20,000 bases of DNA from an uncultured virus (IMG/VR IMGVR_UViG_3300027736_000024) (taxonomy: Duplodnaviria; Heunggongvirae; Uroviricota; Caudoviricetes). Shown piece by piece: positions 2,193-20,000 of the stretch (the first letter of the stretch is position 1; every line of letters starts with the position of its first letter). The notes under the pieces were generated by a model, which saw nothing but the letters and a program-made list of their open reading frames with translations, ran no database searches and was not told the DNA's origin. The translations under genes and the position numbers were made by a program. Location of the stretch: IMG/VR virus record IMGVR_UViG_3300027736_000024, positions 116,127 to 136,126 of that record; one strand, 5' to 3'.

Positions 2193-2196
2193 CAGT

Positions 2197-2671: not shown

Positions 2672-2686
2672 ATTAAAATAAAGGTT

Positions 2687-3891: not shown

Positions 3892-3922
3892 GCGATTTTT
3901 AAATATATAAAAAATAAAAGTT

Positions 3923-4216: not shown

Positions 4217-4245
4217 TAATTAAATAAAAACAAAAACAGAATAAC

Positions 4246-4389
4246 ATGAGCGAATTCAGAGTCATTTCAACAGTCAGTCTTGAGAATTTTTCAGAAGTAG
4301 TAACAAAGTATCTACAACAGGGTTTTGAGCTTTGGGGAGATCCATTCTTTGCTAATGGTAATTTTTGCCAGGCTATAACTAAAAAGTAA
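4246..4389 (+). CDS. DUF1737-like small protein (not in ORF track)
   Basis: MSEFRVISTVSLENFSEVVTKYLQQGFELWGDPFFANGNFCQAITKK (47 aa). The pattern F...V...L..GF.L.G.P......QA..K is typical of DUF1737. Confidence 0.75.
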   Translation: MSEFRVISTVSLENFSEVVTKYLQQGFELWGDPFFANGNFCQAITKK

Positions 4390-4392
4390 TAT

Positions 4393-4554
4393 ATGTCAAA
4401 ATTACTTATAACAATCTTGGTTATTTGCCTAATCAGTACGATTGCTATATTTGCCTTTGTTAGATCCGGTGAATGGTTAGTGGAAAAGTTCCCCCATTCC
4501 GGGTTTAGCAGATGGTGGAGAAGAAACGTAGTAGATAGAGATCCTTGGGAATAA
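4393..4554 (+). CDS. small single-pass membrane protein (not in ORF track)
   Basis: MSKLLITILVICLISTIAIFAFVRSGEWLVEKFPHSGFSRWWRRNVVDRDPWE (53 aa). Starts 3 nt after the previous stop. Confidence 0.7.
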   Translation: MSKLLITILVICLISTIAIFAFVRSGEWLVEKFPHSGFSRWWRRNVVDRDPWE

Positions 4555-4577
4555 TAAAATAATAAAAAATAAAAGTT

Positions 4578-4820
4578 ATGGAAGTTTTAGAATTGATAAA
4601 GCAATTGAGTAAGGAAGAGATCCGTGAGTTATTAGGCTACCTAGAGCAACTCAATGAAGCAGGCCTTATAGAAGAATTTATCTACAAAGTGGATCCGGAA
4701 AGGGTAGCCGAGACTATGTATTATGCCTATTATGATCTCATGATCGATTCCGAAACCGGGAAATGGAAGCCCGAATTCCAAAAGCTATTCCCAAGCCCGG
4801 GGAAAGATCCAATCTATTAA
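4578..4820 (+). CDS. hypothetical acidic protein
   Basis: 80-aa ORF with the AAAATAAAAGTTATG leader. Confidence 0.75.
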   Translation: MEVLELIKQLSKEEIRELLGYLEQLNEAGLIEEFIYKVDPERVAETMYYAYYDLMIDSETGKWKPEFQKLFPSPGKDPIY

Positions 4821-4839
4821 AAAGAATAAATATGAATTT

Positions 4840-4941
4840 ATGGTTCAATTTGTGATCATTTGGTATCTAGTATTCGCAGGCACACTATTTGTACTAGAAT
4901 GTTACCGATTCTTTAAAGATGGCTATAATGAAGAAAACTAA
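4840..4941 (+). CDS. very small membrane peptide (not in ORF track)
   Basis: MVQFVIIWYLVFAGTLFVLECYRFFKDGYNEEN (33 aa) with one hydrophobic helix. It fills the gap between neighbours. Confidence 0.5.
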   Translation: MVQFVIIWYLVFAGTLFVLECYRFFKDGYNEEN

Positions 4942-4975
4942 ACACTATTTTTTAAAAAGCTTTAAATCCGAATTT

Positions 4976-5203
4976 ATGAAAAAAGAGAAGATTGACTACA
5001 CACCTCATTTCTTGACACATGTTCCAGGAGGCCGGAGGTTAGATATCGTATACCAATCAGGTAAAACCTTTAGACAGAATAACTGCCACTATCCAGAAAG
5101 GTACGTTAGGACTTTAATAGATAAACCTGAATTGGAACCAGTTCGTGAGGCATACTATAATGGAAAACCTTTTTACTTCAATGGTAAATTCAATTTCTCA
5201 TGA
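4976..5203 (+). CDS. hypothetical basic protein
   Basis: Track ORF 4919..5203. The ATG at 4976 (MKKEKIDY) avoids overlap with the upstream peptide. Confidence 0.65.
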   Translation: MKKEKIDYTPHFLTHVPGGRRLDIVYQSGKTFRQNNCHYPERYVRTLIDKPELEPVREAYYNGKPFYFNGKFNFS

Positions 5204-5328
5204 AGAGGCGAGATCGATTAAATAGGCTAGAGGATCTAGGGTTTTATATAGCCATGATGTTTACCTCTATAATAATAGGTTTCTTTATACTAGGTGCCAT
5301 TGGAAAGATAGCCTCACTTTTTTGGTAA
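5200..5328 (+). CDS. small single-pass membrane protein (not in ORF track)
   Basis: ATGA overlap with the previous stop. MKRRDRLNRLEDLGFYIAMMFTSIIIGFFILGAIGKIASLFW (42 aa) has a basic N-terminus and a TM helix. Confidence 0.65.
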   Translation: MKRRDRLNRLEDLGFYIAMMFTSIIIGFFILGAIGKIASLFW

Positions 5329-5381
5329 TTGATAAATTTGTATATATGATATTTTAGGGCCCCTTCAAAAACGTGCTTTTT

Positions 5382-5669
5382 ATGACATTCATAATTGTTT
5401 TACTTGCTGCAAGTATTATTATTGGTATAGCTTATTGTCTTAGAAAATTTCTATGGTATATAACTTGGTTTCTATTTAGTCTAGCTATGCTAGGGCTTCC
5501 TGCCATGTTCATAGATCTTGAGATTGGCTTATCAATGATAATCTATGGCTTAGTTATATTGCTAGGAACCTGGCTACTCATATACGCGTCTGCGGCTATT
5601 GTTGCCTTTGTTGCTATACCTATCGCTATTCTTGTAGCTTTTTTTAAAAGCATTTTTAAAATACGCTAA
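5382..5669 (+). CDS. multi-pass membrane protein
   Basis: Almost entirely hydrophobic (3-4 helices) with a basic C-terminus. ATG 5382 is preferred over GTG 5373. Confidence 0.7.
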   Translation: MTFIIVLLAASIIIGIAYCLRKFLWYITWFLFSLAMLGLPAMFIDLEIGLSMIIYGLVILLGTWLLIYASAAIVAFVAIPIAILVAFFKSIFKIR

Positions 5670-5695
5670 TATTTATTAATAATAAAAATAATATA

Positions 5696-5947
5696 ATGAG
5701 TAAGAAATTTAACTATGAAGTATACCTGAGAAACAATCCTCTACTTTCAGAAGCTTCGGGAGAAGACGAAACAAGCTCCGAGTGGCAAGAGGGCAGGATG
5801 ATGATGATAGGTGGAGATAAAATAGGCAGCGCAGTAGAAGATCTATTACAAAATAAGTACGCTCCTGAAGACATTTTAAAACTGTGTCAAAAGATCGTAG
5901 ATCAAAAACAGAAGCGCATGCAAGATTATCAAAACAAATTAAAGTAG
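5696..5947 (+). CDS. hypothetical protein, possible internal head protein
   Basis: N-terminus KKFNYEVYLRNNPLLSE resembles that of the next gene. Both have the leader AAAATAATATAATG. Confidence 0.7.
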   Translation: MSKKFNYEVYLRNNPLLSEASGEDETSSEWQEGRMMMIGGDKIGSAVEDLLQNKYAPEDILKLCQKIVDQKQKRMQDYQNKLK

Positions 5948-5998
5948 AAAAATTCCGAGTTTTTTACTAAAAAGAATTGACTATATAAAAATAATATA

Positions 5999-7471
5999 AT
6001 GGCAGAAAATTTTGATATTGCAAAATTCCTTAAAGAGAACGCTTTGGGTTCTTATGGAATCTTAGGTAATTATGTAGACCTTAAACCTCTTAAAGAAGAT
6101 GATGGATCAGGTTTTTCTGGAAAGATCAGTTTAGATTATTATGATCATCCAAGTATCACTAACTCATTTCAAAAAAGAGCAGTTAAAGCATTTCAGAAGT
6201 ACATAGCATCTGAATTTAATGGCACTGCTACTGTATTAAAAGATTCTTTTGATGAGATCATTTTCCAATTATCAGGTCTTCAAGGAGTTTCTTCTATCGA
6301 AGATGTTATAAGCGCATACAAAAAAATGAGAGCCGACGAAATGAATAAAGATTTTCTAGATTCAGGTGGTCCTTTTTCAATTCTAGCCTCTTGGATGGTA
6401 TCTAAACCAGAAAAATATGTTACTGATGATTCTGATGATGATAAAGGTTGGGGTAATGATGACGATTCTGAGAACAAGAGTTCTTATGTCACTGATTGGT
6501 CTGACGACGAAAAAGGTTGGGGCGATGATGAATTTATAGTAGAAAAAAAAAGTGAAAGCAAGGATAAAAAAGTAGATGTTTATAATGCTGATGAGATTAT
6601 TTACATGGGAGAAGAACCACTAATGGTGGATAAAAAAACTACTATCAAAAAAGGAGACGCCTTAGATTCAGATAAGTTAGTAGATGATGACACTAAATAT
6701 AGAAGAGCCATACTCAGTGTCGATGGTCCACAGTTTAAATACAAAAATCAAATGTATATTTTATATGATATAGATCCAGAAGATGATCGTTATGGTTTTG
6801 ATGACGATGATGATTATGAATCAGGAGGAAGAAGCATTCATTTGACTAAATCATTAGATGAAAAGAAAGAAGACCTTGGTGGTTGGGATGGTAATAAAAA
6901 GTATAATCAATATAATGGTCAATATGATGATGAATTTGGGCCTGCTATTGCCAACGAAAATGTAGAACAAGAAGGATTTGATCGTATGATGGGTCTTATA
7001 GATCAATCAGTTGTATCTAAACTTCCACTTCTAAAAAAGGCTGTAGATAAAGCTAGATCTAAAGGACTAAGTGATGATGCTATATTCAATATGCTATCTA
7101 GTAATTCTTTAGTTAGTAAATCAATCGGTGATTTAATTGATGATGGATTTGATTCTCAAGATATTGTAGATTTTTTCGCTACTGATTTTAATATGATGGA
7201 AGAAGGCGAAGGTGAATATATAAGTGCAAAAAACTTTGATTATATGTCGGATGATCAATTAGATGCCGCCGAAGCATCAGGAGATCTTAAACCAAGTACA
7301 GATTCGATTGGTCCAAATGAAGATGTGGATACAGATGTTGATAAAATGAAAGTGTGGGGAGTATATCATAGCATACTAGAATTTTTGAGAGATAAAATAA
7401 GTACTGATAAATTAAATCAGAGTGAGGTTGATCAATTAAGAACAAAGTTAGAAGACTTCTTTAAACGATAA
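5999..7471 (+). CDS. large acidic protein, possible internal head protein
   Basis: 490 aa and D/E-rich. N-terminus ENFDIAKFLKEN, several hydrophobic-x-E sites between segments, and an internal 23-aa-period duplication. Confidence 0.8.
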   Translation: MAENFDIAKFLKENALGSYGILGNYVDLKPLKEDDGSGFSGKISLDYYDHPSITNSFQKRAVKAFQKYIASEFNGTATVLKDSFDEIIFQLSGLQGVSSIEDVISAYKKMRADEMNKDFLDSGGPFSILASWMVSKPEKYVTDDSDDDKGWGNDDDSENKSSYVTDWSDDEKGWGDDEFIVEKKSESKDKKVDVYNADEIIYMGEEPLMVDKKTTIKKGDALDSDKLVDDDTKYRRAILSVDGPQFKYKNQMYILYDIDPEDDRYGFDDDDDYESGGRSIHLTKSLDEKKEDLGGWDGNKKYNQYNGQYDDEFGPAIANENVEQEGFDRMMGLIDQSVVSKLPLLKKAVDKARSKGLSDDAIFNMLSSNSLVSKSIGDLIDDGFDSQDIVDFFATDFNMMEEGEGEYISAKNFDYMSDDQLDAAEASGDLKPSTDSIGPNEDVDTDVDKMKVWGVYHSILEFLRDKISTDKLNQSEVDQLRTKLEDFFKR

Positions 7472-7511
7472 GATATTTAAAAATACTAAAAACCCTTGCA
7501 ACCCATATATT

Positions 7512-7537
7512 AAGGCCCTACTAGTTAGGGCTTTTTT
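7512..7537 (+). terminator. intrinsic terminator, + strand
   Basis: AAGGCCCTA-ctagt-TAGGGCTTTTTT. Confidence 0.85.
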
Positions 7538-7550
7538 ATTATATGAGCAC

Positions 7551-7572
7551 AAAAAAGCCAGCAAAAGCTGGC
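7551..7572 (-). terminator. intrinsic terminator, - strand
   Basis: A6 followed by GCCAGC-aaaa-GCTGGC on the + strand, which is a hairpin plus U6 on the - strand. It lies at the point where the two transcription units converge. Confidence 0.85.
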
Positions 7573-7606
7573 CTCTTATTAATATAAAATTAATAAAGAA
7601 TTAAAA

Positions 7607-7774
7607 CTAAGCGGCTTTCTTTTTAGACGCTACTGACCATGCAGCTCCTGCAAGAGTCATTATGCCTCCTAGGATTTCTTGAAATAACGCATCGTCAACT
7701 AGGCCTTTTGCAACGATAATACCGCCAACAAAAGTTAATGCATGTCTAATTAGACCTAAAGTTTGATCTTTCAT
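7607..7774 (-). CDS. putative two-TM phage holin (Pam3-gp28-like; not in ORF track)
   Basis: MKDQTLGLIRHALTFVGGIIVAKGLVDDALFQEILGGIMTLAGAAWSVASKKKAA (55 aa), with RH.LT..GG..V.KG and WS...K motifs and a basic tail. Confidence 0.75.
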   Translation of the reverse strand: MKDQTLGLIRHALTFVGGIIVAKGLVDDALFQEILGGIMTLAGAAWSVASKKKAA

Positions 7775-7831
7775 ATTATTTTTTTTAGTTAAAAATATGT
7801 ACCCTTGGTACTATAATAAATATCTTGATTT

Positions 7832-8284
7832 CTATTCTAAGTCTTTTCTATAGAATCTTCCTTGTATATTATCATTATATGAATCTATACGAAGCACATC
7901 TAATTTCATTTGCCAGTAAACTTCCCAATAAGTAAGTTGTTTTTTAGAAAAACAGAGTTGTAAGATCTCTCTAGTAAATATTTCATTACCTAATTCTTTT
8001 CTTTCTAAATTTAGAGTCTTATTACTTCCATAATAACTTAGCCAATCGCTTTCTTTTACCACTTTCTTTTTACGTGGGACGCGCCCAGGTTTGATCCAGG
8101 CCTCGATTTCCTTTTTGGTTAGTATTTTATTATTATTGTTATATAAGACCTTTCTACCTATGTAGAATCGATTTGTAATAATGTTTGTGACCTTATATAT
8201 AAAACCGACTGTATTCTCTGGAAAGTCTTCTACTTTGGTAAACTCTCTGTAGCTTCCTAAATTATCATGATGTAACCACTTCAT
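7832..8284 (-). CDS. GIY-YIG-like (Seg-like) endonuclease-domain protein
   Basis: GFIY-x10-YIG, ESDW..YYGS, F.REIL, a conserved E (YWE) and YN.NI.G. This is a compact type common in large phages. Confidence 0.8.
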   Translation of the reverse strand: MKWLHHDNLGSYREFTKVEDFPENTVGFIYKVTNIITNRFYIGRKVLYNNNNKILTKKEIEAWIKPGRVPRKKKVVKESDWLSYYGSNKTLNLERKELGNEIFTREILQLCFSKKQLTYWEVYWQMKLDVLRIDSYNDNIQGRFYRKDLE

Positions 8285-8293
8285 AAATCTTTA

Positions 8294-8596
8294 TTAACTA
8301 TCCCATCTGATAACAAAAGTCATATCTGTATTTTGTGGGATAGGATATGGCCTAGATAATTTTCCTACTATTAATAATTCATCTTGTGCATTATATAAGC
8401 CAACAGTAGTTGTATAAGGATGAAAATCAGATCCTGTTACTGCGTCTATATAAGATCCTGAGCTGCCTGCTTTATTTGCACTAGGATTTAAAGTATAGTT
8501 AAAATCATTTTCATTTATTTGGCATCTTACTTCATTTTGATAAATGGTAGATTCAGCTACAAAAGATAGTGTATATGGTACTGGTGGGAATGGCAT
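8294..8596 (-). CDS. probable virion structural protein (tail-collar/baseplate-like C-terminal motif)
   Basis: PY.TTVGLYN...ELL.VGKL.RP........F.IRWD resembles the T.VGL......L.A..K...P motif of tail-collar/baseplate proteins. Confidence 0.6.
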   Translation of the reverse strand: MPFPPVPYTLSFVAESTIYQNEVRCQINENDFNYTLNPSANKAGSSGSYIDAVTGSDFHPYTTTVGLYNAQDELLIVGKLSRPYPIPQNTDMTFVIRWDS

Positions 8597-8610
8597 ACTG
8601 TATATAAATA

Positions 8611-11091
8611 TTAGTTTTCCCTTCTTTCTTCAGGAGTATAGTGGGCTATTCTATTATGATTTACAGGACTAGCTAATAAAACAGCAGGTTTTAAATTTTC
8701 TTTTTTAGTTTCTTGAAACATATAACTCATCCAAGTCTGTTCATAAGGACGAGCCCATGTAGTATCTAAAAACATTTTTTGGTTTCCTTTCTTTCCTGCA
8801 ATAGTTGGCCAGTTGCAATAGTAAATATCCCCTGTAATATAACTAAGACCATCTACAACTTCTATTTTATCAAATTTAGTTTTAGGAGAATTTGGATCAA
8901 GACCTGTTGTTGGTAGTTCATTATATTCAGGCCAAAATTCATTTCTTATTTGTTGTGGAACATTATACCAAGATACTTGAATATTATTATCCATATAAAC
9001 TTCTGTATACGATAATTTTAAAAAATCAATATCAGAAGAATCTATAATTTTTAATACTTTATCATATAGATCTGAAATATATGTTCTGAAACCGTTTCTA
9101 CAAATTCCATTAACAGGTTCGTGTATTCCCATATCGTCTTCTAAAAAGATATAATAATCACTATCTGATTCTTGAAAGTGTTGTGCGGCTCTAAATCTAC
9201 CTCCATTAATACCAGTATTTTCATTTGTTATGATGTGTTCAAAATTATACTTTTTACAAATTTCTGCATTAGCTAATCTAGCTTCATCATTAGTAGAATT
9301 ATCTATTAAAATATTTCTAGTATTTGTTATCCATTTAGGATGTTTAAGCCAGGTATTTATTGTATGTTCTACTTGATGAGGAAAATTAAATGTCAACATG
9401 TAAAGCGACATTTTTAATTTAGAAGGATCAGTATTTTTTTTAATAAACCGAATTTTTTCCTCTGGTACGGGTTCTAACTCTACAGTATCATTTAATAGAG
9501 CTTGTATAAATTTAACTATTAATCCATTATCATCTAATGCATATCTTCTATATGTTTGAGGTTCTAAGTAAGACATTACGGTAAACAGACTTTCTTCTGT
9601 ACCCATATAGCCTTCACTAATAGATCTATCTAATAAAGAATAGTACATCGCATTAGCCTCATTTATAACTTCTTTTCTACCTCCAAATAATCCGCCTCTA
9701 CAGACATATTCTACTTTTTTAGCAGCATAACGATTAATTGCTTGAAAATCAAATCCATGAATTTCATCAGCAGCCTGATAAGGATAAGTTAAAAATAAAA
9801 ATGAATCTAAATGTGGAATTATTTTATCTAATGCTCTATTATCTGAAAAAAACTTTTCATATACTGTATTAGTAATTCCTGCATCTAACCAAATAAAATA
9901 TTTAGTATCAAATGGATTCCATATAGTAACATCATTTAATAAAAACATTTTTGATTGTACTATAGGATTATACCATTCTAAAACAGCTTGAGGACTTTGC
10001 TTAAGCCAACCGCCTTCCCCGGTTTTATTATACCAATCTGGATTAGTTCTTATTGATTGGGTTTTATCCCAAAAAGGTGCATATATATTTTTTACATCTT
10101 CTAATTCATATATTTTTACAGTAGTATTTTTTTTGTCTCTAATTTCCCAAATTAAATGTTCATATTTACTTTCTATGTAAATAAACATATTAACAGGAAT
10201 TTCTAAAAATTTTTTAAAATGCTCTATGTAATGATCAAAATCCCTAACAGGTCTTCCTATATTCCACAAACCCGTAACTACAGTTAAGTCTTTATTATTT
10301 ACCTCTATTTTAGAACGATTTTCTGTTAAATATTTTAATAACTGCTGAGATTCTTCTGTAGATAGTGTTTTTGTTTTTTCTATAATATCTGATAATTTTG
10401 ATTCTTTATTTTTATCGCTACCTTTAATTTCATCCCAAATATTTTTATCTACAGCATCAATATCTTGCCCAATTTCAATTACATAGCCATTATCAATTAA
10501 TTTTTGTTTAGTTAATTCTTTTTCTTCATCTGTTAAATTTATATATTCTAAACGAATAAACTTAGGTTTATATTTATTAAAATCTAATTGTTTTAAAATA
10601 TTCCAATCATATCCTTCAACATCACATATTAAAATATCAAATTTTTCAATATTATGTTTATTCATTAAAGAGTTTAAAGTTAATGTAGGAACTTTTATAT
10701 CTATTCCAAAATTCTTTTTTACATCTATATCTCTTTGATAATCTGTTCCAAAACCGTTTTTTAGTGGATATAAAGCACTCATACCTTTATAACCCGGATG
10801 TAGATTTTCTTTTTCTATTGCTATTTTTGGAATAGTTAACATTTCTACTTCGCCATCTATTTCTGTAATAGCACATTGTTCAAATGCATAATTTTCCCTA
10901 TCTCTAAAGTTATATTTTAATTCAGTAAATATTTCTGGAATTGGTTCTACTAATAACGCAGGCCATCTATACATGTCTAGAAAACCTCTTGTATCATCAA
11001 AATTTATTCCATCCATGGCTCCTATTTGAACTACAAATGTATCTTTATGATTTTTACCTATATGATGTAAAGTTTTTGATATTATATCCAT
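8611..11091 (-). CDS. triple fusion: FkbM-type methyltransferase + HtrL/YibB-like domain + GT-A-like glycosyltransferase
   Basis: N-terminal QIGAMDG, VEP and DVEGYD (FkbM/Methyltransf_21). Middle TVVTGLWNIGR, WLDAG, GGLFGG and GTEES (HtrL). C-terminal LIDNS, NTGINGGR and FLEDD (GT-A). Confidence 0.8.
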   Translation of the reverse strand: MDIISKTLHHIGKNHKDTFVVQIGAMDGINFDDTRGFLDMYRWPALLVEPIPEIFTELKYNFRDRENYAFEQCAITEIDGEVEMLTIPKIAIEKENLHPGYKGMSALYPLKNGFGTDYQRDIDVKKNFGIDIKVPTLTLNSLMNKHNIEKFDILICDVEGYDWNILKQLDFNKYKPKFIRLEYINLTDEEKELTKQKLIDNGYVIEIGQDIDAVDKNIWDEIKGSDKNKESKLSDIIEKTKTLSTEESQQLLKYLTENRSKIEVNNKDLTVVTGLWNIGRPVRDFDHYIEHFKKFLEIPVNMFIYIESKYEHLIWEIRDKKNTTVKIYELEDVKNIYAPFWDKTQSIRTNPDWYNKTGEGGWLKQSPQAVLEWYNPIVQSKMFLLNDVTIWNPFDTKYFIWLDAGITNTVYEKFFSDNRALDKIIPHLDSFLFLTYPYQAADEIHGFDFQAINRYAAKKVEYVCRGGLFGGRKEVINEANAMYYSLLDRSISEGYMGTEESLFTVMSYLEPQTYRRYALDDNGLIVKFIQALLNDTVELEPVPEEKIRFIKKNTDPSKLKMSLYMLTFNFPHQVEHTINTWLKHPKWITNTRNILIDNSTNDEARLANAEICKKYNFEHIITNENTGINGGRFRAAQHFQESDSDYYIFLEDDMGIHEPVNGICRNGFRTYISDLYDKVLKIIDSSDIDFLKLSYTEVYMDNNIQVSWYNVPQQIRNEFWPEYNELPTTGLDPNSPKTKFDKIEVVDGLSYITGDIYYCNWPTIAGKKGNQKMFLDTTWARPYEQTWMSYMFQETKKENLKPAVLLASPVNHNRIAHYTPEERREN

Positions 11092-11092
11092 A

Positions 11093-12706
11093 TTATTTTG
11101 TTATGTAATAATTTTCTATTACTAGTCCGTCTAATTGTGTATTATTTAATATTTCAAATGCGTCTTTTATTGAAGAAAGTATAGGTTTACCATCTACATT
11201 AAATGATGTATTTAGTAGTACGCCTATACCGGTTTCTTCTTCAAATTTTGTTATTAAATTATATAACCATTCATTTTGTTCTTTTGTTACTGTTTGTACT
11301 CTAGCAGTACCATCAACATGTGTTATTGATGGTAATTTATCTTTCCATTCCTCTTTTACTTTTGGACAAAAACTCATCCATCTAGATTCTTTATTCCATT
11401 CAAAATATTTATTTACATCTTCTAATCTAACTACAGGAGCAAATGGTCTATACCACTCTCTATGTTTTACTTTTTCATTTAATATAGATTTCATTTCAGG
11501 AATAGTCGGATTACAAATAATACTTCTATTTCCTAAAGCTCTCGGTCCATGTTCTGATCTTCCTCTTGCAACACCGATTATTTTTCCATTAATAAGATCT
11601 TTAACTAAATCCTCTTCTTTTAGATTATGAGAAGTAAAAAATATCTTATTATTTTGAATATAATCAGGTAATAAATCTAAGTCAAGTAAATTTGTACCAG
11701 AATAAGTACTATCAAAAGGTTTTTCAGGTTTTAAATTATCTAATATCATACCTAAACCTATTCCACAATCATTAGGATCAGGTCCAACAAATACTTCTTT
11801 ATTAAATTCATTAACTAATCTGGTATTTAATAAAATATTTAATCCACAACCTCCTGCTAAACATATTGGATATTCTTTATATTTTTCCATTTGAGGAATA
11901 GCAACTTCTAAAAAACAATCTTCAAAAGCTTTTTGAGATGTTGCAGCAATATCGTATGCTAATTGTCCTGTTAATCTATCAGTTATAGAAAATTCTACTC
12001 CTATAATATCACCTAAAACTTTTATTTTATCAAAATAATTTCCTCCATTAGGATCACTCTTATAAAAATTTATAAAGTGTGGAAGCCACTCTTCATTTAT
12101 TTTTCCATAAGATGATAGTCCCATTATTTTTCCTGAATAAACTAAATTACCCATTCCTAAATCTTCAAATCTAATATCATTTAAGTAATGAGCAAATATC
12201 ATATAAGGAAATCCTAAATCATATCCGATATAATGAAGATTTAAAATTGGATTAATTACGCTTTGAATTTGCTCAGGAGATTTTCCTCTTTCACAAGTAT
12301 AAACATTAAATTTTCCATCGTTTCCTCCACCATCAAAAGAAAATATTAGTGCTTTTTCAAAAGGAGATTGATAAAAAGATCCTGCGGCATGAGATAAATG
12401 ATGTTTACATTCTATATAATTTTTTGCGGGTATAAATTTATGTAAATAATAAAGTTCATGTATAACTATATCAGTGTTTATATAATAGCAATTATCAAAT
12501 TCTTCAATATTATATTTATTCATTATCCATTTAGGAATATATTCGGCTAAAAATACTATGTCTAAAACTTTTGGACAATAATATTGAGCTAATCCAGAAT
12601 TTTTATAATTTAAAAATCTTTCAACTTCTAAAACTAATTCTATTTTGCCGTCTATTTCTAAAACATACGACGCATTATGAGAACCATAAAAAGATATATT
12701 TACCAT
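11093..12706 (-). CDS. O-carbamoyltransferase, NodU/CmcH family
   Basis: HHLSHA, DGGG, GKIMGLSSYG, AGGCGLN, PND.G, EHGPRALGNRS, KHREWYRPFAP, HVDGTARVQTV and LLNTSFN. Confidence 0.95.
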   Translation of the reverse strand: MVNISFYGSHNASYVLEIDGKIELVLEVERFLNYKNSGLAQYYCPKVLDIVFLAEYIPKWIMNKYNIEEFDNCYYINTDIVIHELYYLHKFIPAKNYIECKHHLSHAAGSFYQSPFEKALIFSFDGGGNDGKFNVYTCERGKSPEQIQSVINPILNLHYIGYDLGFPYMIFAHYLNDIRFEDLGMGNLVYSGKIMGLSSYGKINEEWLPHFINFYKSDPNGGNYFDKIKVLGDIIGVEFSITDRLTGQLAYDIAATSQKAFEDCFLEVAIPQMEKYKEYPICLAGGCGLNILLNTRLVNEFNKEVFVGPDPNDCGIGLGMILDNLKPEKPFDSTYSGTNLLDLDLLPDYIQNNKIFFTSHNLKEEDLVKDLINGKIIGVARGRSEHGPRALGNRSIICNPTIPEMKSILNEKVKHREWYRPFAPVVRLEDVNKYFEWNKESRWMSFCPKVKEEWKDKLPSITHVDGTARVQTVTKEQNEWLYNLITKFEEETGIGVLLNTSFNVDGKPILSSIKDAFEILNNTQLDGLVIENYYITK

Positions 12707-13695
12707 TATTTTATGTGTAATAATTTTAAACCGTGTGATAACCTATTTTCAGGACTACAATAATCTAAATAATATTGTCTTGCATTTTTAGCTATATAAT
12801 TTAAAAACTCTGCGTCTTCTTTAACTTCTAAAAATCTATCTATATAAGCTTTTATATAATTTTCTCCACCTAATCTATCTAAGCCATTATTATAAGGTAA
12901 ATTATATTTAGCTCTATCTATTGCAATATAATGATAATTTGGTATTAATGGAGGATTTAATTGAGTCATATATTCAACTCTTAAAAATGGAACACCTATT
13001 GCCATATATTCCATTTCTCTATATGAGTATTCCGCAGTAGTTCCAATTGCTAATCCTATTTTATGTTTTATTAATTCCTCAAAGTATGTTCCCATTCTTT
13101 TTGGCGTTAAGTCTTTATTCAAATATCCTAATTCTGATAATTTAACAGGATCAAATCTTTGAGTAGTATATAGCATGAATAGCTTATCTTCTAAATCAGA
13201 ACTTGGAATATTTTTTCTTTTGGTATATATATCCTCTAAATTAATTCTATCTGGATTTATTATATCATTTGTAGAATTATCTTGGACAGGATAAAAAACT
13301 GTTTGAGAAACTGTAAAATTATAATCGGATAGATTCATATTGTCTTTACCTGTTTCTATAACTTTATTAAACCAATTATAAAATTGAGTTATTAATAATA
13401 AATCATTTTTATTATTTCTTTTAACAAATACATCTTCCCAAATTTTAGTATAATGTTCACTATAACTTATTCCTTTTAATATATCATTTTCTTTATCATA
13501 TATTAATAATTCACAGTCTGCCATTTCATAATCAAATTCTTCAATATACATTGTAATACCTCCTGGACCTGGATAATTAGTTTTTCTTATGACTTCTGCA
13601 CCATATTCTTTTTTGTAATATTCTACAATTTCTTTAAATAATCCTTGCCAACTACTATATGCATAGCTAACATTTTCAAAATAATAAATTACCAT
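12706..13695 (-). CDS. putative glycosyltransferase-like protein (GT-B C-terminal-like)
   Basis: C-terminal SYREMEYMAIGVP, LIPNYHYI and IAKNARQYY resemble CgeB/Glyco_trans_1_2/GT90-type nucleotide-sugar-binding halves. TAATG coupling to the carbamoyltransferase. Confidence 0.6.
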   Translation of the reverse strand: MVIYYFENVSYAYSSWQGLFKEIVEYYKKEYGAEVIRKTNYPGPGGITMYIEEFDYEMADCELLIYDKENDILKGISYSEHYTKIWEDVFVKRNNKNDLLLITQFYNWFNKVIETGKDNMNLSDYNFTVSQTVFYPVQDNSTNDIINPDRINLEDIYTKRKNIPSSDLEDKLFMLYTTQRFDPVKLSELGYLNKDLTPKRMGTYFEELIKHKIGLAIGTTAEYSYREMEYMAIGVPFLRVEYMTQLNPPLIPNYHYIAIDRAKYNLPYNNGLDRLGGENYIKAYIDRFLEVKEDAEFLNYIAKNARQYYLDYCSPENRLSHGLKLLHIK

Positions 13696-13711
13696 AAATT
13701 ATATATTAAAT

Positions 13712-14980
13712 TTAAATTGTGTGTTCTACTCTTTCTGCCCAACCAATTTCTTTACTATAACCCCAATAAACTACTCTAGTTGGTGTTTTATCAGTTAAAA
13801 AATACTCTTCATAGTGAATATTTTTTCCTTCCTCAATAAACTGCCTCAATTCTTCCCCGGTTATAAATTTATTATTTATTGAATTACCATTTGTATCATC
13901 AAATGCTACTAGTATATATTCATAATCATTTCTTAAAAAATCTTTACGTTCTACTGTAACTAAGTAATAAAATGACTTATTAAAACTATATTCCCATAAA
14001 TCATTATCATTAATAAGAGGATTAGGTGGATAATGATTATCTAAAGAGTATTGCTGAACAGACATTTTTTTAAAATTAAATCCAGCATATTTTTCATAAT
14101 CTCTTAAAGATCTAACTGTTCCTAAATCATAGCCTGTTAAATCTATATTAGGATCTTCTTCTGTTCCTAATAAAACCCGTATTTTTTTTCTAGCTAATTC
14201 TTGTTTATTCCACCAATCTACTCCTAATTTTGCATCGTCATCCCACTTTAACATTCCTGATCTCTCTTCACGCATAGTTGAATGCCAAACAACTAATCTA
14301 TGTGGATGAAATAAATCATATCCGTGAGTATATGATCTTACTGTTAAGTTTAATTCTTCACCTGAAAAATATATATCTGGATCGTGTCTTATTTCTTTTG
14401 CCCACTCTGATCTTGCAAAACAAAAGTGTCCTGATAAAAATCTACTCATCGGAGGTTCTGTCATATCTTGCCAGCCAGTAAGTAATCCAGGTCTTATGAA
14501 TATTGTTCCATGTGGATAGAAACATACAAATTGTTGTTGCCAGGGCTCCATTGTGCGGCCACCAGGATCATTAAAAGGTGTATACAATGGTAGATAGGCA
14601 GCTAATATAGGTTTATAACCACGAGCCTCTAAACCACTATGCATATCTATTAGAGTTTCATCCCAATCTTTAGCAAATCTATGATGTGAATCTAATTGAC
14701 AAACATAGTCTTCATCTGTTAATAATTTCTCATTTATAATAGATCTAGCCCAAGGAAGTCCTTGAGCCTCATTATATAAACATTCATAGATTTTAAAACG
14801 TTTATCATTTTTAAATTCTGATAAATCGTCGAATCCATCTTCTGGATGATATTGTCTGCAGATACCAAAGTGTATTCTTTTTGGGTGTTTTGCATTTAAT
14901 AAAGCATCTTTAATAGTAGGAATTAATTCAGGATCTCTGTAAGCTGGTAAATGTACCAGTATTGTTTTTTTATTATTCAT
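13712..14980 (-). CDS. GT60-like polypeptide GlcNAc-transferase, paralog 2
   Basis: AYRDPEL..T, G..WAR, QLDSHHRF, SGHF.F, DP.IYFSGEE and R.YTHGYDLF.P, typical of the Skp1-GlcNAcT ('GlcNAc') family. Confidence 0.88.
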   Translation of the reverse strand: MNNKKTILVHLPAYRDPELIPTIKDALLNAKHPKRIHFGICRQYHPEDGFDDLSEFKNDKRFKIYECLYNEAQGLPWARSIINEKLLTDEDYVCQLDSHHRFAKDWDETLIDMHSGLEARGYKPILAAYLPLYTPFNDPGGRTMEPWQQQFVCFYPHGTIFIRPGLLTGWQDMTEPPMSRFLSGHFCFARSEWAKEIRHDPDIYFSGEELNLTVRSYTHGYDLFHPHRLVVWHSTMREERSGMLKWDDDAKLGVDWWNKQELARKKIRVLLGTEEDPNIDLTGYDLGTVRSLRDYEKYAGFNFKKMSVQQYSLDNHYPPNPLINDNDLWEYSFNKSFYYLVTVERKDFLRNDYEYILVAFDDTNGNSINNKFITGEELRQFIEEGKNIHYEEYFLTDKTPTRVVYWGYSKEIGWAERVEHTI

Positions 14981-16229
14981 ATTCTATAACTTGTTCAATT
15001 CTTTCCATCCAACCTTTTGATTTTGTGTGAGGCCAAACTCTCCAAGAATGCGCTTTTCGATTATCTTCATACTCTCTCCAAATATGAATAAATTGATCAT
15101 TACTGTCTTGATTAATTAATCCACGTATTTCATTTTCATCACAATCTCTTCTATATAAATCATTTCCATCTTCGTCTAAAAATGCAACTGCAAATTGATC
15201 ATAATCAGATTCTATAAGTGATCCCTTATAAATATCAATACAATGTTTTATCTTACTCGCTAACCCAGACTCATAATCCCCTTTAATTGGAGGAAAATCA
15301 TTATTAAGAGTTTCTTTGTGTATCTGTCTTGTAGAAAATTTTAATCCGGCATATCTTTCATAAGCATCTAAAGTTTCAATATAACCAAAATAATTCGGAG
15401 CTAAAGCTCTTCTAGTGCAAGAAGAACAACCAGGATCCATTCCCATTAATTTTCTATATCTTGCATAAGATGCATCATCTCTTTCTTTCCAATCATTAGA
15501 ATCATCCCAATGTTTTTTCTTTCCTTCTCTTGTATATTCATGCCATATAACAGGCCTATGTGGAGAAAATAAATTATATCCAAAAGTAAAAGCTCTAGCA
15601 GCTAAAGAACTTTCTTCTCCATGAAAATATAATTCAGGATCATAAGGAACTTCTATTGGAAATGAACCTAATGTAAAAATAAAATGAGCAGATATAAATC
15701 TTGCAGGAAAAGGTTCTTTATGATCTTGCCAATTTGGAATATGGTGAGGAGCTAAAAATATAGCTCCCGCAGGCATGAATCTATCTATATTTAAACCCCA
15801 CACTTCATGAACTCTTGCATTCGGATCATTATTAGGAAAATATCCAGGTACATAAGCAGATAATAAAGGTTTTTTATATCCTTTACATTGTAAATAGTGT
15901 ATATAATCTTTTAAAGTTATATCCCAGTCTTGTAAAAATCTATGATGTGAATCTAATTGTAAATAATATTCCTGATCTGTATAATGTTTTTGAATTTCTG
16001 CACGCATCCAACAAACACCTTTAGCTTCTTTATATGGAATATCTAAAATAATAAATCTAGAATCATTTTTATATTCATCTAGATTATCCCAAGTATCTTC
16101 TTCTGAATGTTGCCAACCAATACAAATAGTAAAATTTTCTGGATTAACACAATTAGTTAATAAATCTTTTATAGTAGGAAGTAATTCTGGATCTCTATAA
16201 GCTGCTATCGAAACAAAAATTCTTGACAT
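14973..16229 (-). CDS. GT60-like polypeptide GlcNAc-transferase, paralog 1
   Basis: IFVSIAAYRDPEL, A.GVCW.R, LQLDSHHRF, VPYDP.LYF.GEE and WHEY.R. The start is moved to ATG 16229 (MSRIFV) because the track's extra residues overlap a promoter motif. Confidence 0.9.
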   Translation of the reverse strand: MSRIFVSIAAYRDPELLPTIKDLLTNCVNPENFTICIGWQHSEEDTWDNLDEYKNDSRFIILDIPYKEAKGVCWMRAEIQKHYTDQEYYLQLDSHHRFLQDWDITLKDYIHYLQCKGYKKPLLSAYVPGYFPNNDPNARVHEVWGLNIDRFMPAGAIFLAPHHIPNWQDHKEPFPARFISAHFIFTLGSFPIEVPYDPELYFHGEESSLAARAFTFGYNLFSPHRPVIWHEYTREGKKKHWDDSNDWKERDDASYARYRKLMGMDPGCSSCTRRALAPNYFGYIETLDAYERYAGLKFSTRQIHKETLNNDFPPIKGDYESGLASKIKHCIDIYKGSLIESDYDQFAVAFLDEDGNDLYRRDCDENEIRGLINQDSNDQFIHIWREYEDNRKAHSWRVWPHTKSKGWMERIEQVIEYE

Positions 16230-16232
16230 AAC

Positions 16233-16265
16233 GTAAATATACAAAATTTATTTGATATAAAAAAA
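16233..16265 (-). promoter_or_regulatory. promoter-like motif heading the glycosylation operon
   Basis: The minus strand reads TTTTTTTAT-atcaaataaattttg(15)-TATATTTAC-gtt-ATG, the same architecture and spacing as modules 1 and 2. Confidence 0.65.
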
Positions 16266-16271
16266 TTTATT

Positions 16272-19200
16272 TTAACATGGACCTGCGGCTATATTTGCTG
16301 TAAATCCTCTAGTAGGTGTTGCAGAATTTACAGCAGCTGTACACGTACCTCCTGCTGTAGGACAAGTACTGTTTGCAGATATACCACAATTATAAGGACT
16401 TCTATCTGCATTATTCACTAATTGAACTAATGCTGAATCACCTGCATTTAATATGAATGAAGCTCTAAATCCGCAAGTAGAAACAGCAAATGCGGCTCCT
16501 ACAGGAGTATAATTAAATCCACCATCTGTTGAATATTCAAATTGAACAAAAGTTGCATTATCACTAGTTTTACCATATAAATTAACAGTAAATGGACCAG
16601 ACGTAGACGGAGTTACACTAGGAGTTCTAGTTGGCGTTGGTGATGGTGAAGGACAAGCCGCTATACTTTGAATCAATCCACTACCTCCTGTTACTGTACC
16701 ATAATTCGTTCCATTAGAATAGAATCCGTTATTTACTGTATTAGATCCTATTGAATCCATAGCATTTGTTTTATATAGAATCATACCAGCTTGAAATGCT
16801 GAGGTATACGAATAATATGTTGTTAAAGTTTCTGTTGCTGTACATGCAGTTAATCCACTTGATGCATTATAGTATAACGCATAAGAATATACTACTCTAC
16901 TAGGACTAGGAGTATTACTAGGTGTTATACTAGGAGTTATACTAGGTGTTACTGTTCTAGTAGGAGTTATACTAGGAGTTATACTAGGTGTTTTACTAGG
17001 TGTTACTGTTCTAGTAGGAGTTATACTAGGAGTTATACTAGGTGTTACTGTTCTAGTAGGAGTTATACTAGGAGTTACACTAGGTGTTGTTGATCTAGTA
17101 GTACTTACACTAGGAGTCGGTACCGCTGTACAATCTTGAACATTAGTTATATTTCCTGCTCCATCCATTTCAACAGCGTATGTGACACCACTTCTAGTAA
17201 TATAGTGCCATGTAGTTCCTAAATATTTATTAGCCGGATTTAAAGTATCAGTAGTATATATAATGCCTCCTATTGCAGGAACATTATAAGATGAATTCAT
17301 CCATACAGGAAGGGACGCTCCAGCATTAGCGCAAGCTAATGTAGATGTTGCGTATGCTGTATTATTAATTAAATATGCAACAGGTGCCGCAGTAACACTA
17401 GGAGTTACGCTAGGAGTTATACTAGGTGTAATACTAGGAGTTCTACTAGGTGTTACGCTAGGAGTGCCGCTAACGCTAATTGACGGAGTAGGTGCAGGAG
17501 TACACGCTATATTTACTGTATATGTATCAGTTTTTGGATCAGCAGGATTATATGTTCCTGTTTCAACTAATAAGTAATATGTTATACTATTATTATAAGT
17601 AAAATCTAAATATCCAGTAGGTGATCCGAATGTATTAGGCGTTGGAAGGGTTGGACAATCCCAATCAGGCGCGGAATAACAAAAATCAGATCCTACCCAA
17701 CTTGAAGAAACGGCAGTTGCTATGCCATTTTCATAGACTGTAAATCTATTAGGCCTTTCATAAGCTTGATAAAAAAGTGATATTGCACTTCCATTAGGAG
17801 TAGATGAAAAATCTAAACAATAAAATTCCTGATGGTAATCATTACCACTATATCCTCCTGATATAATATCTCCACAATCATTTGGACATCCACCTGGACC
17901 ATATGCCGATCTTGTAGGACTTACAGAAGGTGTATTAGTTGCTGTGGGAGTGGGGGGTGGTGTACAAATAACTCTTATATAATAAGCATCTGTTATTCCA
18001 ATATCCTCACAAATATCAACTATCACATAATATGTTCTTGAACTATTGTATGTAAATGTTGTATCTACAGGGTTTATGTCAATAGGAGTACAAGGGGAAC
18101 TAGGTGCTGATGATGGTGATCCTAACCATCCAGTTGTAAATATCGGTGATGGATTTACGCTATCATACAATGTAAATCTGTCAGGCCTATCTCTTCCATC
18201 AAATTGTATATATATAGAAGAACCATTTGCCGTAGATGTTAAATCAAGATTTACTTGTTGTTGTGATGCATTATTAGGACTATAAGAACCTATATAACTA
18301 CCTCCACAACTTAATACTGGATTTGGTGTTGTTGAAGGTGTTATAGTAATACTAGGTGTTGTACTAACTGTTATACTAGGTGTTATGCTAGGAGTTCTAC
18401 TAGGTGTAATAGTAATACTAGGAGTAATACTAGGAGTAATACTCGGTGTTATGCTAGGTGTTACGCTAGGAGTTCTACTAGGCGTTGCGGTTACACTAGG
18501 TGTTGCAGTTACTGTTGGTGTAACACTTATACTAGGTGTTGCTGTTATACTAGGTGTTGCTGTTACTGTTGGAGTAATAGTTATACTAGGTGTTATACTA
18601 ACAGTAATACTAGGTGTTACGCTAGGTGTTATGCTAGGAGTTACACTAGGTGTTATTGATATGCTAGGTGTTACGCTAGGTGTTATGCTAGGTGATACAC
18701 TAGGAGTTACACTAATACTGGTAGTAATGCTAGGAGTTATACTAGGAGTTACACTAGGAGTTATACTAATACTGGTAGTGATGCTAGGTGTTATGCTAGG
18801 TGTTACACTAGGTGTTATTGATGTAGTAGTAGTAATGCTAGGAGTTATACTAGGTGTAATACTTGGCGTAATGCTAGGTGTTATACTAGGGGTAACTGTT
18901 GCTGTTACACTAGTAGTAATACTAGGAGTTATACTAGGTGTTACGCTAACAGATATACTAGGAGTTATACTTGGAGTTACACTAGTAGTAATACTAGGAG
19001 TTACGCTAGGTGTTATGCTAGGAGTTACTGATATACTAGGTGTTACACTAGGAGTCATTGTTATAGTTACACCTGGTGTTGATGTTGGACTAGCTGTCAA
19101 AGTTATAGTAGGAGTAATACTTATGCTAGGTGTTGCTGTTACTGTTGGCGTAATAGTTATACTAGGCGTTGCTGTTACACTAGGTGTTGCAGTTATACTA

Positions 19201-20000
19201 GGTGTAATACTAATACTAGGCGTTGCTGTTACACTAGGCGTTGCTGTTACACTAGGTGTAATACTTATGCTAGGTGTAGATGTTACAGTTGGTGTAATAG
19301 TTATACTAGGCGTTGCTGTTAAACTAGGTGTAATACTTATACTAGGTGTAGATGTTACAGTTGGCGTAATAGATATACTAGGCGTTGCTGTTACACTAGG
19401 CGTTGCTGTTACACTAGGTGTAATACTTATGCTAGGTGTTACACTAGGAGTCATTGTTATAGTTACACCTGGTGTTGATGTTGGGCTAGCTGTCAAAGTT
19501 ATAGTAGGTGTAATACTTATGCTAGGTGTAATAGTTACTGTCGGGGTAATAGTTACACTAGGTGTTGCTGTTACAGTTGGTGTAATAGTTATACTAGGCG
19601 TTGCTGTTACACTAGGTGTAGGTGTTACCGTTGGTGTAATAGTTATACTAGGAGTCGCAGTCATACTAGGTGTTGTTGTTACTGTTGGACTAATACTTAC
19701 ACTAGGTGTTGCGGTTACTGTTGGAGTAATACTTATACTAGGTGTTGCAGATACTGTTGGACTAATACTTACACTAGGTGTAGATGTTACCGTTGGTGTA
19801 ATAGTTATACTAGGTGTTGCTGTTACAGTTGGTGTTATGCTAGGAGTTACACTAGGTGTTATTGATATAGTAGTAGTAATACTAGGAGTTATACTAGGTG
19901 TAATACTAGGAGTTACGGTAACAGATATACTAGGAGTTATACTAACAGTTATACTAGGTGTAATACTCGGTGTTATAGAAACAGTAACAGATGGAGTAGG
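16272..20000 (-). CDS. giant mucin-like Ser/Thr/Pro repeat protein with Cys-bracketed globular domains (5'-truncated, at least 1242 aa)
   Basis: The frame of track ORF 16272..19664 stays open without a stop to 20000. Long (T-P-S/T-I/V)n tracts separate five globular domains. Confidence 0.92.
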   Translation of the reverse strand, partial: PTPSVTVSITPSITPSITVSITPSISVTVTPSITPSITPSITTTISITPSVTPSITPTVTATPSITITPTVTSTPSVSISPTVSATPSISITPTVTATPSVSISPTVTTTPSMTATPSITITPTVTPTPSVTATPSITITPTVTATPSVTITPTVTITPSISITPTITLTASPTSTPGVTITMTPSVTPSISITPSVTATPSVTATPSISITPTVTSTPSISITPSLTATPSITITPTVTSTPSISITPSVTATPSVTATPSISITPSITATPSVTATPSITITPTVTATPSISITPTITLTASPTSTPGVTITMTPSVTPSISVTPSITPSVTPSITTSVTPSITPSISVSVTPSITPSITTSVTATVTPSITPSITPSITPSITPSITTTTSITPSVTPSITPSITTSISITPSVTPSITPSITTSISVTPSVSPSITPSVTPSISITPSVTPSITPSVTPSITVSITPSITITPTVTATPSITATPSISVTPTVTATPSVTATPSRTPSVTPSITPSITPSITPSITITPSRTPSITPSITVSTTPSITITPSTTPNPVLSCGGSYIGSYSPNNASQQQVNLDLTSTANGSSIYIQFDGRDRPDRFTLYDSVNPSPIFTTGWLGSPSSAPSSPCTPIDINPVDTTFTYNSSRTYYVIVDICEDIGITDAYYIRVICTPPPTPTATNTPSVSPTRSAYGPGGCPNDCGDIISGGYSGNDYHQEFYCLDFSSTPNGSAISLFYQAYERPNRFTVYENGIATAVSSSWVGSDFCYSAPDWDCPTLPTPNTFGSPTGYLDFTYNNSITYYLLVETGTYNPADPKTDTYTVNIACTPAPTPSISVSGTPSVTPSRTPSITPSITPSVTPSVTAAPVAYLINNTAYATSTLACANAGASLPVWMNSSYNVPAIGGIIYTTDTLNPANKYLGTTWHYITRSGVTYAVEMDGAGNITNVQDCTAVPTPSVSTTRSTTPSVTPSITPTRTVTPSITPSITPTRTVTPSKTPSITPSITPTRTVTPSITPSITPSNTPSPSRVVYSYALYYNASSGLTACTATETLTTYYSYTSAFQAGMILYKTNAMDSIGSNTVNNGFYSNGTNYGTVTGGSGLIQSIAACPSPSPTPTRTPSVTPSTSGPFTVNLYGKTSDNATFVQFEYSTDGGFNYTPVGAAFAVSTCGFRASFILNAGDSALVQLVNNADRSPYNCGISANSTCPTAGGTCTAAVNSATPTRGFTANIAAGPC
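18321..20000 (-). repeat. coding degenerate 12/18/24-bp tandem repeats (TPS[IV], TATPS[IV], TPSISI)
   Basis: Dozens of variants of actaggtgttat / actaggagttac on the + strand. Confidence 0.9.

Follow-up and report, generated by a model that had tools for sequence, protein, structure and literature searches.

The window analysed here, the final 20 kb (20,000 nucleotides, nt) of a 136,126-bp viral contig (IMG/VR record IMGVR_UViG_3300027736_000024, positions 116,127 to 136,126), encodes two glycosyltransferases (GTs) of the GT60 type directly beside a protein with long threonine/proline/serine (TPS) tracts. Judging from sequences and predicted structures, we consider it rather likely that this soluble GT60 pair O-glycosylates the TPS tracts of its neighbour, a protein encoded in what appears to be a virion-fibre slot of the genome, in the cytoplasm of the host bacterium. 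This reading builds on the genes present, their families, fold likeness and solubility, their place in the genome and their co-occurrence; the identity of acceptor and donor sugar, the sequence of steps and the function of the glycan are inferred. We equate the Pfam family PF11397, to which both transferases belong, with the CAZy family GT60, an assumption that agrees with the passage on the family in PMC8724618. The genes concerned are the following (aa, amino acids):

16272..20000, minus strand: modular protein with Thr/Pro/Ser repeats, at least 1242 aa, 5' end open
14973..16244, minus strand: GT60a, a PF11397 GT-A transferase, called with a TTG start
13712..14980, minus strand: GT60b, PF11397, overlapping GT60a by 8 nt
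12706..13695, minus strand: p329, after a 16-nt gap to GT60b, with a lead to a GT-B-like protein
11093..12706, minus strand: NodU/CmcH-type carbamoyltransferase, overlapping p329 by 1 nt
8611..11091, minus strand: FkbM-HtrL-GT2-like fusion protein of 826 aa, after a 1-nt gap to the carbamoyltransferase

The coordinates of the open reading frames (ORFs) confirm the order, overlaps and gaps of these genes as given in an initial annotation of the window (8-nt, 16-nt, 1-nt and 1-nt within the cassette, 42-nt between repeat gene and cassette). The likely start of GT60a is the ATG at 16229, where its relatives begin, and it is this start that yields the 42-nt gap. The repeat gene is incomplete because the contig end cuts it, which is not a biological feature.

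Both transferases score far above the cut-off of their family (21): PF11397 matches GT60a at E 3e-61 (208.3 bits) and GT60b at 6e-50 (171.1 bits), and a genome-wide search with it returns these two proteins only. GT60a also matches phrog_24687 (8e-141). GT60b is a paralogue of GT60a with 38% identity and the same invariant residues; in 54 of 54 aligned relatives of GT60a and GT60b, the stretch D97-S-H99-H-R-F, which includes a D-x-H motif, and H234 are unchanged, and D97, H99 and H234 are the putative metal ligands. The D-x-H motif is also used by the enzymes of family GT27, the polypeptide N-acetylgalactosaminyltransferases (ppGalNAc-transferases), and it is to these that the predicted structure leads. 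The AlphaFold2 model of GT60a (mean predicted local distance difference test, pLDDT, 93.7) has a GT-A fold, and the best 50 matches listed by Foldseek in the PDB are all GT27 ppGalNAc-transferases (E 1e-10 to 2e-8; 10-15% identity; template modelling (TM) score about 0.45-0.52), including human T1, T2, T4, T7, T10 and T12, Drosophila PGANT9 and Toxoplasma GalNAc-T3. By sequence, neither the single protein nor a 54-sequence profile finds a PDB relative of GT60a; fatty-acid-binding proteins came up at chance level (E 0.17 or worse) and were discarded. In addition to the GT-A fold, the model has an extra C-terminal domain of ~120 residues that is rich in β-strands.

Membrane-like segments are absent from all cassette proteins (highest Kyte-Doolittle mean over 19 residues, 1.35), and we predict that the GT60 enzymes and the rest of the cassette are soluble and cytoplasmic. 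From its family and its modelled fold, we propose that GT60a is an initiating polypeptide N-acetylhexosamine (HexNAc) transferase. GT60 enzymes are described, in the passage concerned of PMC8724618, as protist polypeptide alpha-N-acetylglucosamine (GlcNAc) transferases that are related to GT27 and lack the ricin-like domain. A route through hydroxyproline, like that of Skp1, is unsupported here, as no prolyl 4-hydroxylase (PF13640) was found in the 136-kb contig.

The putative acceptor is rich in residues that such enzymes could modify. Ser, Thr and Pro make up 52.5% of the repeat protein (652 of 1241 residues), and S/T/P tracts cover 799 of the 1241 residues, with 388 Ser/Thr, and 'TPS' occurs 99 times in the protein; it has long, dense Ser/Thr/Pro tracts of the kind that serve as acceptors in mucin-type glycosylation. 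An unbroken (T/S)-P-(S/T)-(I/V) repeat of ~570 aa lies upstream of five or six small, Cys-containing globular modules with shorter TPS linkers between them. The underlying DNA repeats are old and have degenerated to matches of 61-93%, with periods of 12 to 216 nt. The C-terminal modules are 38-62% identical to the TPS proteins that relatives encode at the corresponding position, whereas a wider set of 302 matches consists of mixed modular proteins, aligned mostly via their linkers and in some cases bearing Laminin_G_3 or DUF285 domains, and points to no function. Pfam and PHROG searches with the TPS proteins gave nothing beyond the low-complexity family phrog_15511, whose matches fall mainly on the repeat. 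The plus-strand ORF at 18385..19998 (538 aa, with L-G-V repeats) is no gene but the mirror frame antisense to the TPS repeat. Four tandem genes for Laminin_G_3 (concanavalin-like) proteins of 224-242 aa stand within the structural module of the same genome (G000 L005:16044 to L006:1493), and the domain is likewise present in several TPS-linked homologues.

We also considered the host as the source of the glycan. The O-glycosylation motif of Bacteroidota is D-S/T-hydrophobic. This source was rejected because Asp is not among the commonest residues of the first 575, almost all of them repeat, and because the full-length TPS proteins of relatives, as read from their sequences, have no signal-peptide-like N-terminus.

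The TPS tracts and the GT60 genes occur together across phage genomes. Whole records were searched with a DNA pattern of three T-P-[S/T/C/R/W] triplets, 3-12 bases apart; as a control, the pattern read backwards had 0 matches in all records except one, which had a single match. In this genome, all 74 matches along the 136 kb fall inside the repeat gene, which is the only such protein on the contig. Five large GT60-bearing records without an adjacent S/T/P ORF (G001-G005) have 43, 27, 20, 129 and 49 matches elsewhere in the genome, and the GT60-positive Xanthomonas jumbo phages XacN1 and Xoo-sp13 have 68 and 64. To these we added an unbiased sample of the phage's own lineage, namely the contigs of at least 52 kb among 80 loci selected by capsid protein (n=20), of which 17 were searched. 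The five PF11397-positive contigs have 6, 55, 80, 5 and 88 matches, whereas 11 of the 12 negative ones have 0 and the remaining one has 1 (one-sided Fisher test on 5/5 versus 1/12, about 0.001 by hand arithmetic); among the complete genomes of this sample, two have both features and two have neither. Five GenBank relatives without a GT60a match, two of them as large as 484 and 595 kb, have 0 matches each. In total, 12 of 12 GT60-bearing records are positive with at least 5 matches each, in addition to the present genome, and 16 of 17 GT60-lacking records have no match, the other having a single one. The two features need not be neighbours: in G014, the GT60 gene lies at 0.6-2.7 kb and the slot at 119-128 kb. 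The initial annotation had suggested examining whether GT60 genes and S/T/P-rich ORFs co-occur in large phages; the association is clean, and it extends to bacteria.

At the level of the locus, an IMG/VR scan returned 57 loci with GT60a relatives (36-81% identity), two of which (L051 and L052) come from giant-virus bins. A second GT60 paralogue is present in 31 of the 57, a relative of the HtrL fusion in 38, a carbamoyltransferase in 8 and an S/T/P-rich ORF within 10 kb in 16. As in the present phage, this ORF immediately precedes GT60a in L011, L012, L014-L018 and L025, and the one adjoining GT60 in L036 hits a PHROG labelled 'virion structural protein' (4e-249). The middle of the cassette differs among relatives, where it includes genes of GT2, GT34-like, PLOD-GT-like and GT25-like transferases, DegT, an epimerase and methyltransferases, as expected of a locus that builds glycans. 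In L013, L019-23, L040 and L046, the cassette instead adjoins an ORF of 860 to 863 aa (cut at 636 aa in L040), which we first took for a possible structural protein but whose sequence reads as a family B DNA polymerase, so adjacency of GT60 and repeat is not a rule. The initial description of a system 'encoded next to its substrate' is therefore apt for this phage, but as a generalization it covers only the 16 loci just mentioned, the tracts of others lying elsewhere.

Two further observations concern these relatives. How much Ser the tracts contain follows the GT60 paralogue number: 15 loci with two paralogues have an S/(S+T) of 0.32-0.60, as against 0.07-0.21 in five of six tract loci from single-paralogue genomes, the exception being L058 at 0.54. 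These loci are not independent of one another, and L074 may partly have been read in the wrong frame. In the jumbo phages XacN1 and Xoo-sp13, a GT60 gene is followed by a carbamoyltransferase gene, and beside this block stands a giant ORF of ~3300 aa (XacN1 ORF325 and Xoo-sp13_296; L158 and L159), whose C-terminal part has short P/T/S linkers and paired Cys motifs.

Full-length GT60 relatives are also found at 490 places in species-representative genomes of bacteria, including Saprospiraceae, Gemmatimonadota, Verrucomicrobiota, Acidobacteriota, Cytophagales, Chitinophagaceae and Proteobacteria; some of the carriers are cultured isolates with megabase contigs. Among the best 80 of the 490 loci, an S/T/P-rich ORF lies within 10 kb in 28, compared with 2 of 80 in reversed sequence, and in 15 loci from many phyla it is at most 500 bp from the GT60 homologue. 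One cultured carrier is Jiulongibacter sediminis (L202), in which 191 bp separate the GT60 homologue and a TP-repeat gene. With these bacterial neighbours, the pairing of enzyme and repeat emerges as a general prokaryotic theme. The initial annotation had also spoken of a 'eukaryote-style' system; the resemblance to animal and protist enzymes stands, but for a family so widespread in bacteria the phrase is overstated, and it denotes resemblance, not a demonstrated origin.

The genomic position of the repeat protein points to the virion. Two small genes follow the cassette:

8294..8596, minus strand: p100, 100 aa, C-terminal piece of the conserved fibre-slot gene
7832..8284, minus strand: SegE-like GIY-YIG homing endonuclease (PF19835, 8e-26), which closes the island

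In most relatives, the conserved slot gene is one gene of 270-300 aa. One such unsplit product is the 280-aa protein P0002 (L162:2537-3376), encoded by a single gene in a complete relative that has neither GT60 nor TPS tracts. Its residues 190-280 are 80% identical to p100 (E 7e-56), and its residues 1-169 match the first 177 residues of TPS protein 1 of L011 (L011:5659-6882; 48%, E 1e-39). By sequence comparison, the glyco-island thus separates two parts of a gene that relatives without the island carry intact. The unsplit protein is common (459 proteins, all named hypothetical), and a neighbouring 345-aa protein has a C-terminal domain paralogous to that of the slot gene product. Three GT60-lacking records have 0.6, 2.9 and 5.6 kb between the 345-aa gene and the end piece, and two GT60-bearing ones have 7.4 and 10.7 kb. 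In many relatives, the pair of p100 and SegE follows the cassette. In Flavobacterium phage vB_FspM_immuto, the same slot comes after genes annotated as baseplate wedge, contains genes annotated as tail fibre and tail spike (the depositors' labels) and ends at a gene labelled 'NAD synthetase' (NC_055915 gp100), the counterpart of the SegE-like family. This label, which phrog_447 shares, is probably a misannotation, since the protein matches the SegE GIY-YIG domain at 8e-26.

The remaining cassette genes fit a glycan-building role to different degrees. The carbamoyltransferase matches Carbam_trans_C (3e-66, 222.6 bits, cut-off 27), Carbam_trans_N (4e-23, 82.9 bits, cut-off 24) and phrog_1601 (2e-125). 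In the fusion protein, residues 22-192 match Methyltransf_21, the FkbM family (1e-13, 51.9 bits against a cut-off of 22.7), and residues 268-514 match HtrL_YibB, the HtrL/WlaTC family (1e-14, 54.8 bits against 24.1). Its C-terminal domain (about 555-826) reaches Glycos_transf_2 at 9e-4 and 19.6 bits, under the cut-off of 23.3, so we refer to it as a GT2-like fold and not as a member; structural look-alikes of residues 540-826 in a protein atlas give a GT2 cluster at TM 0.63/0.79 as a lead. p329 has no Pfam or PHROG match, and its atlas look-alikes include PF13524/GT90 clusters (TM 0.65), again a lead and not a membership; from its predicted GT-B-like fold, we propose that it is an elongating glycosyltransferase. 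The five enzyme assignments of the initial annotation thus hold at the level of a family or a lead in Pfam, PHROG and the atlas structures.

Taken as a pathway, these genes could act as follows. During infection, the two soluble GT60-type enzymes would attach the first sugar, probably a HexNAc, to Thr and Ser residues within the TPS tracts of the adjacent protein. p329 and the HtrL and GT2-like domains would extend the glycan, and the carbamoyltransferase and the FkbM domain would decorate it. The acceptor would be a probable virion appendage whose TPS stalks, once glycosylated, serve as stiff spacers that resist proteases and present small binding modules. This role is proposed from the behaviour of O-glycosylated S/T/P linkers and mucins, an analogy being fungal and bacterial cellulases, in which such linkers connect globular modules and are stiffened and guarded against proteases by their glycans. 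Cellulases are secreted and glycosylated by host pathways, whereas the phage protein has far longer tracts and is encoded next to its proposed modifying enzymes. Of the glycosylation scheme in the initial annotation, the core agrees with the enzyme families, their solubility, the fold and the co-occurrence, while carbamoyl and methyl capping, the identity of the sugar and the order of steps keep the conditional in which we put them; its suggestion that the fibre might decoy glycan-binding host receptors finds no support in this analysis.

Several observations weigh against O-glycosylation of the TPS tracts by the GT60 pair. No S/T/P-rich ORF lies inside 10 kb in 41 of the 57 phage loci and in 52 of the 80 bacterial ones, and a few of the 28 bacterial S/T/P ORFs, from high-GC loci, resemble wrong-frame ORFs. 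Within the lineage, the capsid tree needs only 3 changes of GT60 state, 1 of them forced by well-supported branches, so that the association there goes back to 1-3 independent events, and a phylogeny-corrected sign test, with only 1-3 independent pairs, puts significance out of reach (the capsid row L136, with 29 translation breaks and a very long branch, was left out of the trait-change analysis). The independence of the association comes from unlinked genomes, jumbo phages and bacteria. One negative record, G010 (63% complete), has no PF11397 and yet a Thr-rich stretch, TTTTSTTTSTTT, with one pattern match in its fibre-slot protein (L160, 95014-96501 in record coordinates); it is possibly an exception to the co-occurrence, or else its GT60 gene lies in the missing part. 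As regards the fibre, Foldseek finds nothing at E <= 0.001 for the model of the unsplit slot protein (pLDDT 75), and its best VIA-wide Z of 6.4 is within the stated noise range, although many of the rows are phage virion parts. Pfam and PHROG gave nothing usable for this 280-aa protein or for the upstream proteins of 1290-1467, 230 and 345 aa. As the slot protein has no clear structural match, the term 'virion fibre' draws on position, on depositors' annotations and on the PHROG match of the GT60 neighbour in L036. Lastly, lipopolysaccharide and oligosaccharide pathways are the better-known setting of HtrL and NodU-type enzymes.

Alternatively, the cassette might glycosylate another phage product, be it the capsid, the sheath, another virion protein or a small molecule, with the TPS tracts as plain flexible linkers that travel in the same mobile tail-fibre-slot island. 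TPS proteins and cassette do occupy a single hypervariable slot with a homing endonuclease gene at its end, the lineage requires no more than 1-3 independent gains or losses, and the glycans of mycobacteriophages, according to the passage in PMC12619734 (citing Freeman 2023), sit on capsid and tail-tube subunits. Co-travelling, however, does not account for tracts and GT60 genes that co-occur even when far apart (G001-G005, G014), for a pairing that recurs in Xanthomonas jumbo phages and as abutting genes in 15 bacterial loci, or for nearest solved folds (the best 50 listed) that act on exactly such Ser/Thr/Pro tracts, and we regard this explanation as unlikely.

We hold it quite unlikely, too, that the cassette remodels host surface glycans such as lipopolysaccharide or capsule, for example to block superinfection or to keep progeny from sticking to debris. 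Phage sugar-gene clusters are usually interpreted in this way, and another large cluster of sugar-nucleotide genes is present in this genome. HtrL_YibB takes its name from a gene of the enterobacterial lipopolysaccharide core region, and NodU-type enzymes carbamoylate oligosaccharides. The 22 sugar genes of a cyanophage have been interpreted as modifying the host cell wall, as stated in the relevant part of PMC12801897. Against this, the cassette proteins have no membrane segment; no family of lipid-carrier initiating transferases, flippases, polymerases or exporters was found among the 145 ORFs scanned (82% of the genome); and surface remodelling leaves unexplained why GT60 tracks the T-P-S tracts and why GT60a resembles polypeptide transferases only.

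That the transferases glycosylate phage DNA (hypermodified bases) and so serve restriction evasion is very improbable: this is a frequent role of phage glycosyltransferases, and the genome has a thymidylate-synthase-like ORF, a dCMP deaminase and a dUTPase, but these nucleotide genes are ~60 kb away from the cassette, GT60a has the D-x-H motif and matches ppGalNAc-transferases, and published phage GT-A enzymes that glycosylate DNA belong to another type. Those described in a preprint (bioRxiv 10.1101/2023.12.21.572611), whose main text by term counts contains none of GT60, PF11397 and carbamoyl, resemble base-J glucosyltransferase and TarP and have R...DDD...EDY/F motifs.

If the GT60 pair does glycosylate the TPS tracts, a wider picture can be drawn tentatively, which we hold possible but would not yet call likely. 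PF11397 would mark a widespread, unrecognised mucin-type O-glycosylation of TPS proteins in the cytoplasm of prokaryotes and in phages. The phage cassette would resemble an O-antigen locus for fibres, with conserved ends (the GT60 pair and the HtrL fusion) and a hypervariable middle that gives each phage its own fibre glycan, and the GT60 paralogues would split the Thr and Ser sites between them.

The phage itself, uncultured and from water, is a distant T4-like myovirus with a GC content of 31%, and its contig is 82% complete according to CheckV. T4-like parts include the gp20 portal, a gp21-type protease, the gp23 capsid protein, the tail sheath, a T4 baseplate protein, gp32 and a UvsX-like protein; it also has a family A DNA polymerase, DnaB, a class II ribonucleotide reductase, GroEL/GroES and Hsp20, the genes of Hsp20, GroES and GroEL lying side by side (G000 L007:15137-17699). 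By capsid protein, the nearest cultured relatives are Flavobacterium phage vB_FspM_immuto (54%), Microcystis phage Mel-JY01 (51%) and Rhodothermus phage RM378 (35%), and no near-identical DNA was found in the GenBank phage collection. The plus strand of window positions 1-7500 carries small ORFs without a family match, a DUF932 protein (2687-3490) and an unmatched 490-aa protein (5999-7471). At 7512-7572, the plus strand has two terminator-like sites, which face the block on the minus strand; this block has one such site of its own:

7799..7811, minus strand: terminator-like site, a consensus match only, just past the SegE-like gene and the sole minus-strand one in 7500-17000

In this consensus scan, no minus-strand site lies within the block from the TPS gene to the SegE-like gene; the single site after the endonuclease gene is weak evidence for one transcription unit. 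A scan for sigma-70-type promoters was uninformative (53 sites versus 64 +/- 8.7 in shuffles), and the window has no tRNAs.

Outside the window, at ~68-95 kb (L008:8208 to L009:14565 of G000), lies the second large sugar cluster. It encodes GT2- and GT1-type transferases, a DegT aminotransferase, a GDP-mannose 4,6-dehydratase, epimerases and a stand-alone FkbM, and it may supply donors for the GT60 cassette. Further genes of the cluster, for a TPP (thiamine pyrophosphate) enzyme, an acetaldehyde dehydrogenase and an HMGL-like aldolase, might contribute to a branched or acylated sugar.

Among known systems, the closest enzymes are the protist members of the same Pfam family (Dictyostelium, including the Skp1 hydroxyproline GlcNAc-transferase, and Trypanosoma cruzi), which according to the passage in PMC8724618 start mucin-type O-glycans on Ser/Thr-rich domains without the animal ricin-like lectin domain. 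The phage enzymes differ from them in being soluble, in the extra C-terminal domain of ~120 residues and in belonging to a large prokaryotic branch. The GT27 enzymes of animals, Drosophila and Toxoplasma provide the nearest solved folds of GT60a and share its D-x-H, and their acceptors are dense Ser/Thr/Pro tracts; unlike them, the phage enzymes have neither a signal anchor nor a ricin lectin domain and would work in the bacterial cytoplasm, not in the Golgi. Giant viruses decorate their own structures, such as the chlorovirus capsid protein and the mimivirus fibrils, by means of virus-encoded sugar-nucleotide synthesis and glycosyltransferases. The present genome is similar in having its own GDP-mannose dehydratase, DegT aminotransferase and epimerases, but giant viruses infect eukaryotes and use other enzyme families and other acceptors. 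For the split slot gene, there are known precedents in T4-like phages, in which genes in pieces are found beside homing endonuclease genes. The free-standing end piece p100 with its neighbouring GIY-YIG endonuclease gene is alike in this, whereas the insert is not an endonuclease gene alone but a fibre-plus-glycosylation island of at least 10 kb. Finally, mycobacteriophages likewise encode glycosyltransferases that act on their own virion proteins; in the passage in PMC12619734 (citing Freeman 2023), those glycans are placed at the C-termini of the subunits, whereas the acceptor proposed here is a mucin-like fibre-slot repeat of hundreds of residues with GT60-type initiators.

In the literature searched, we found no account of GT60 or PF11397 in phages or bacteria, the sole mention of PF11397 being in a brown alga, and none of mucin-like glycosylated phage fibres. 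While the glycosylation of structural proteins by a virus's own enzymes is already known from giant viruses and, recently, from mycobacteriophages, a mucin-type phage system with hundreds of Ser/Thr sites on a fibre, and with initiators related to the mucin enzymes of protists and animals, would be new with respect to that literature. If our reading is true, many abundant aquatic phages would carry a glycan coat on their host-recognition apparatus, which would bear on adsorption, host range, stability and the stickiness of the particles. Likewise, bacteria would possess an unrecognised cytoplasmic O-glycosylation route for Thr/Pro-rich proteins, and the phage cassette would represent a compact, soluble set of enzymes with which mucin-like glycoproteins could be made in bacteria.

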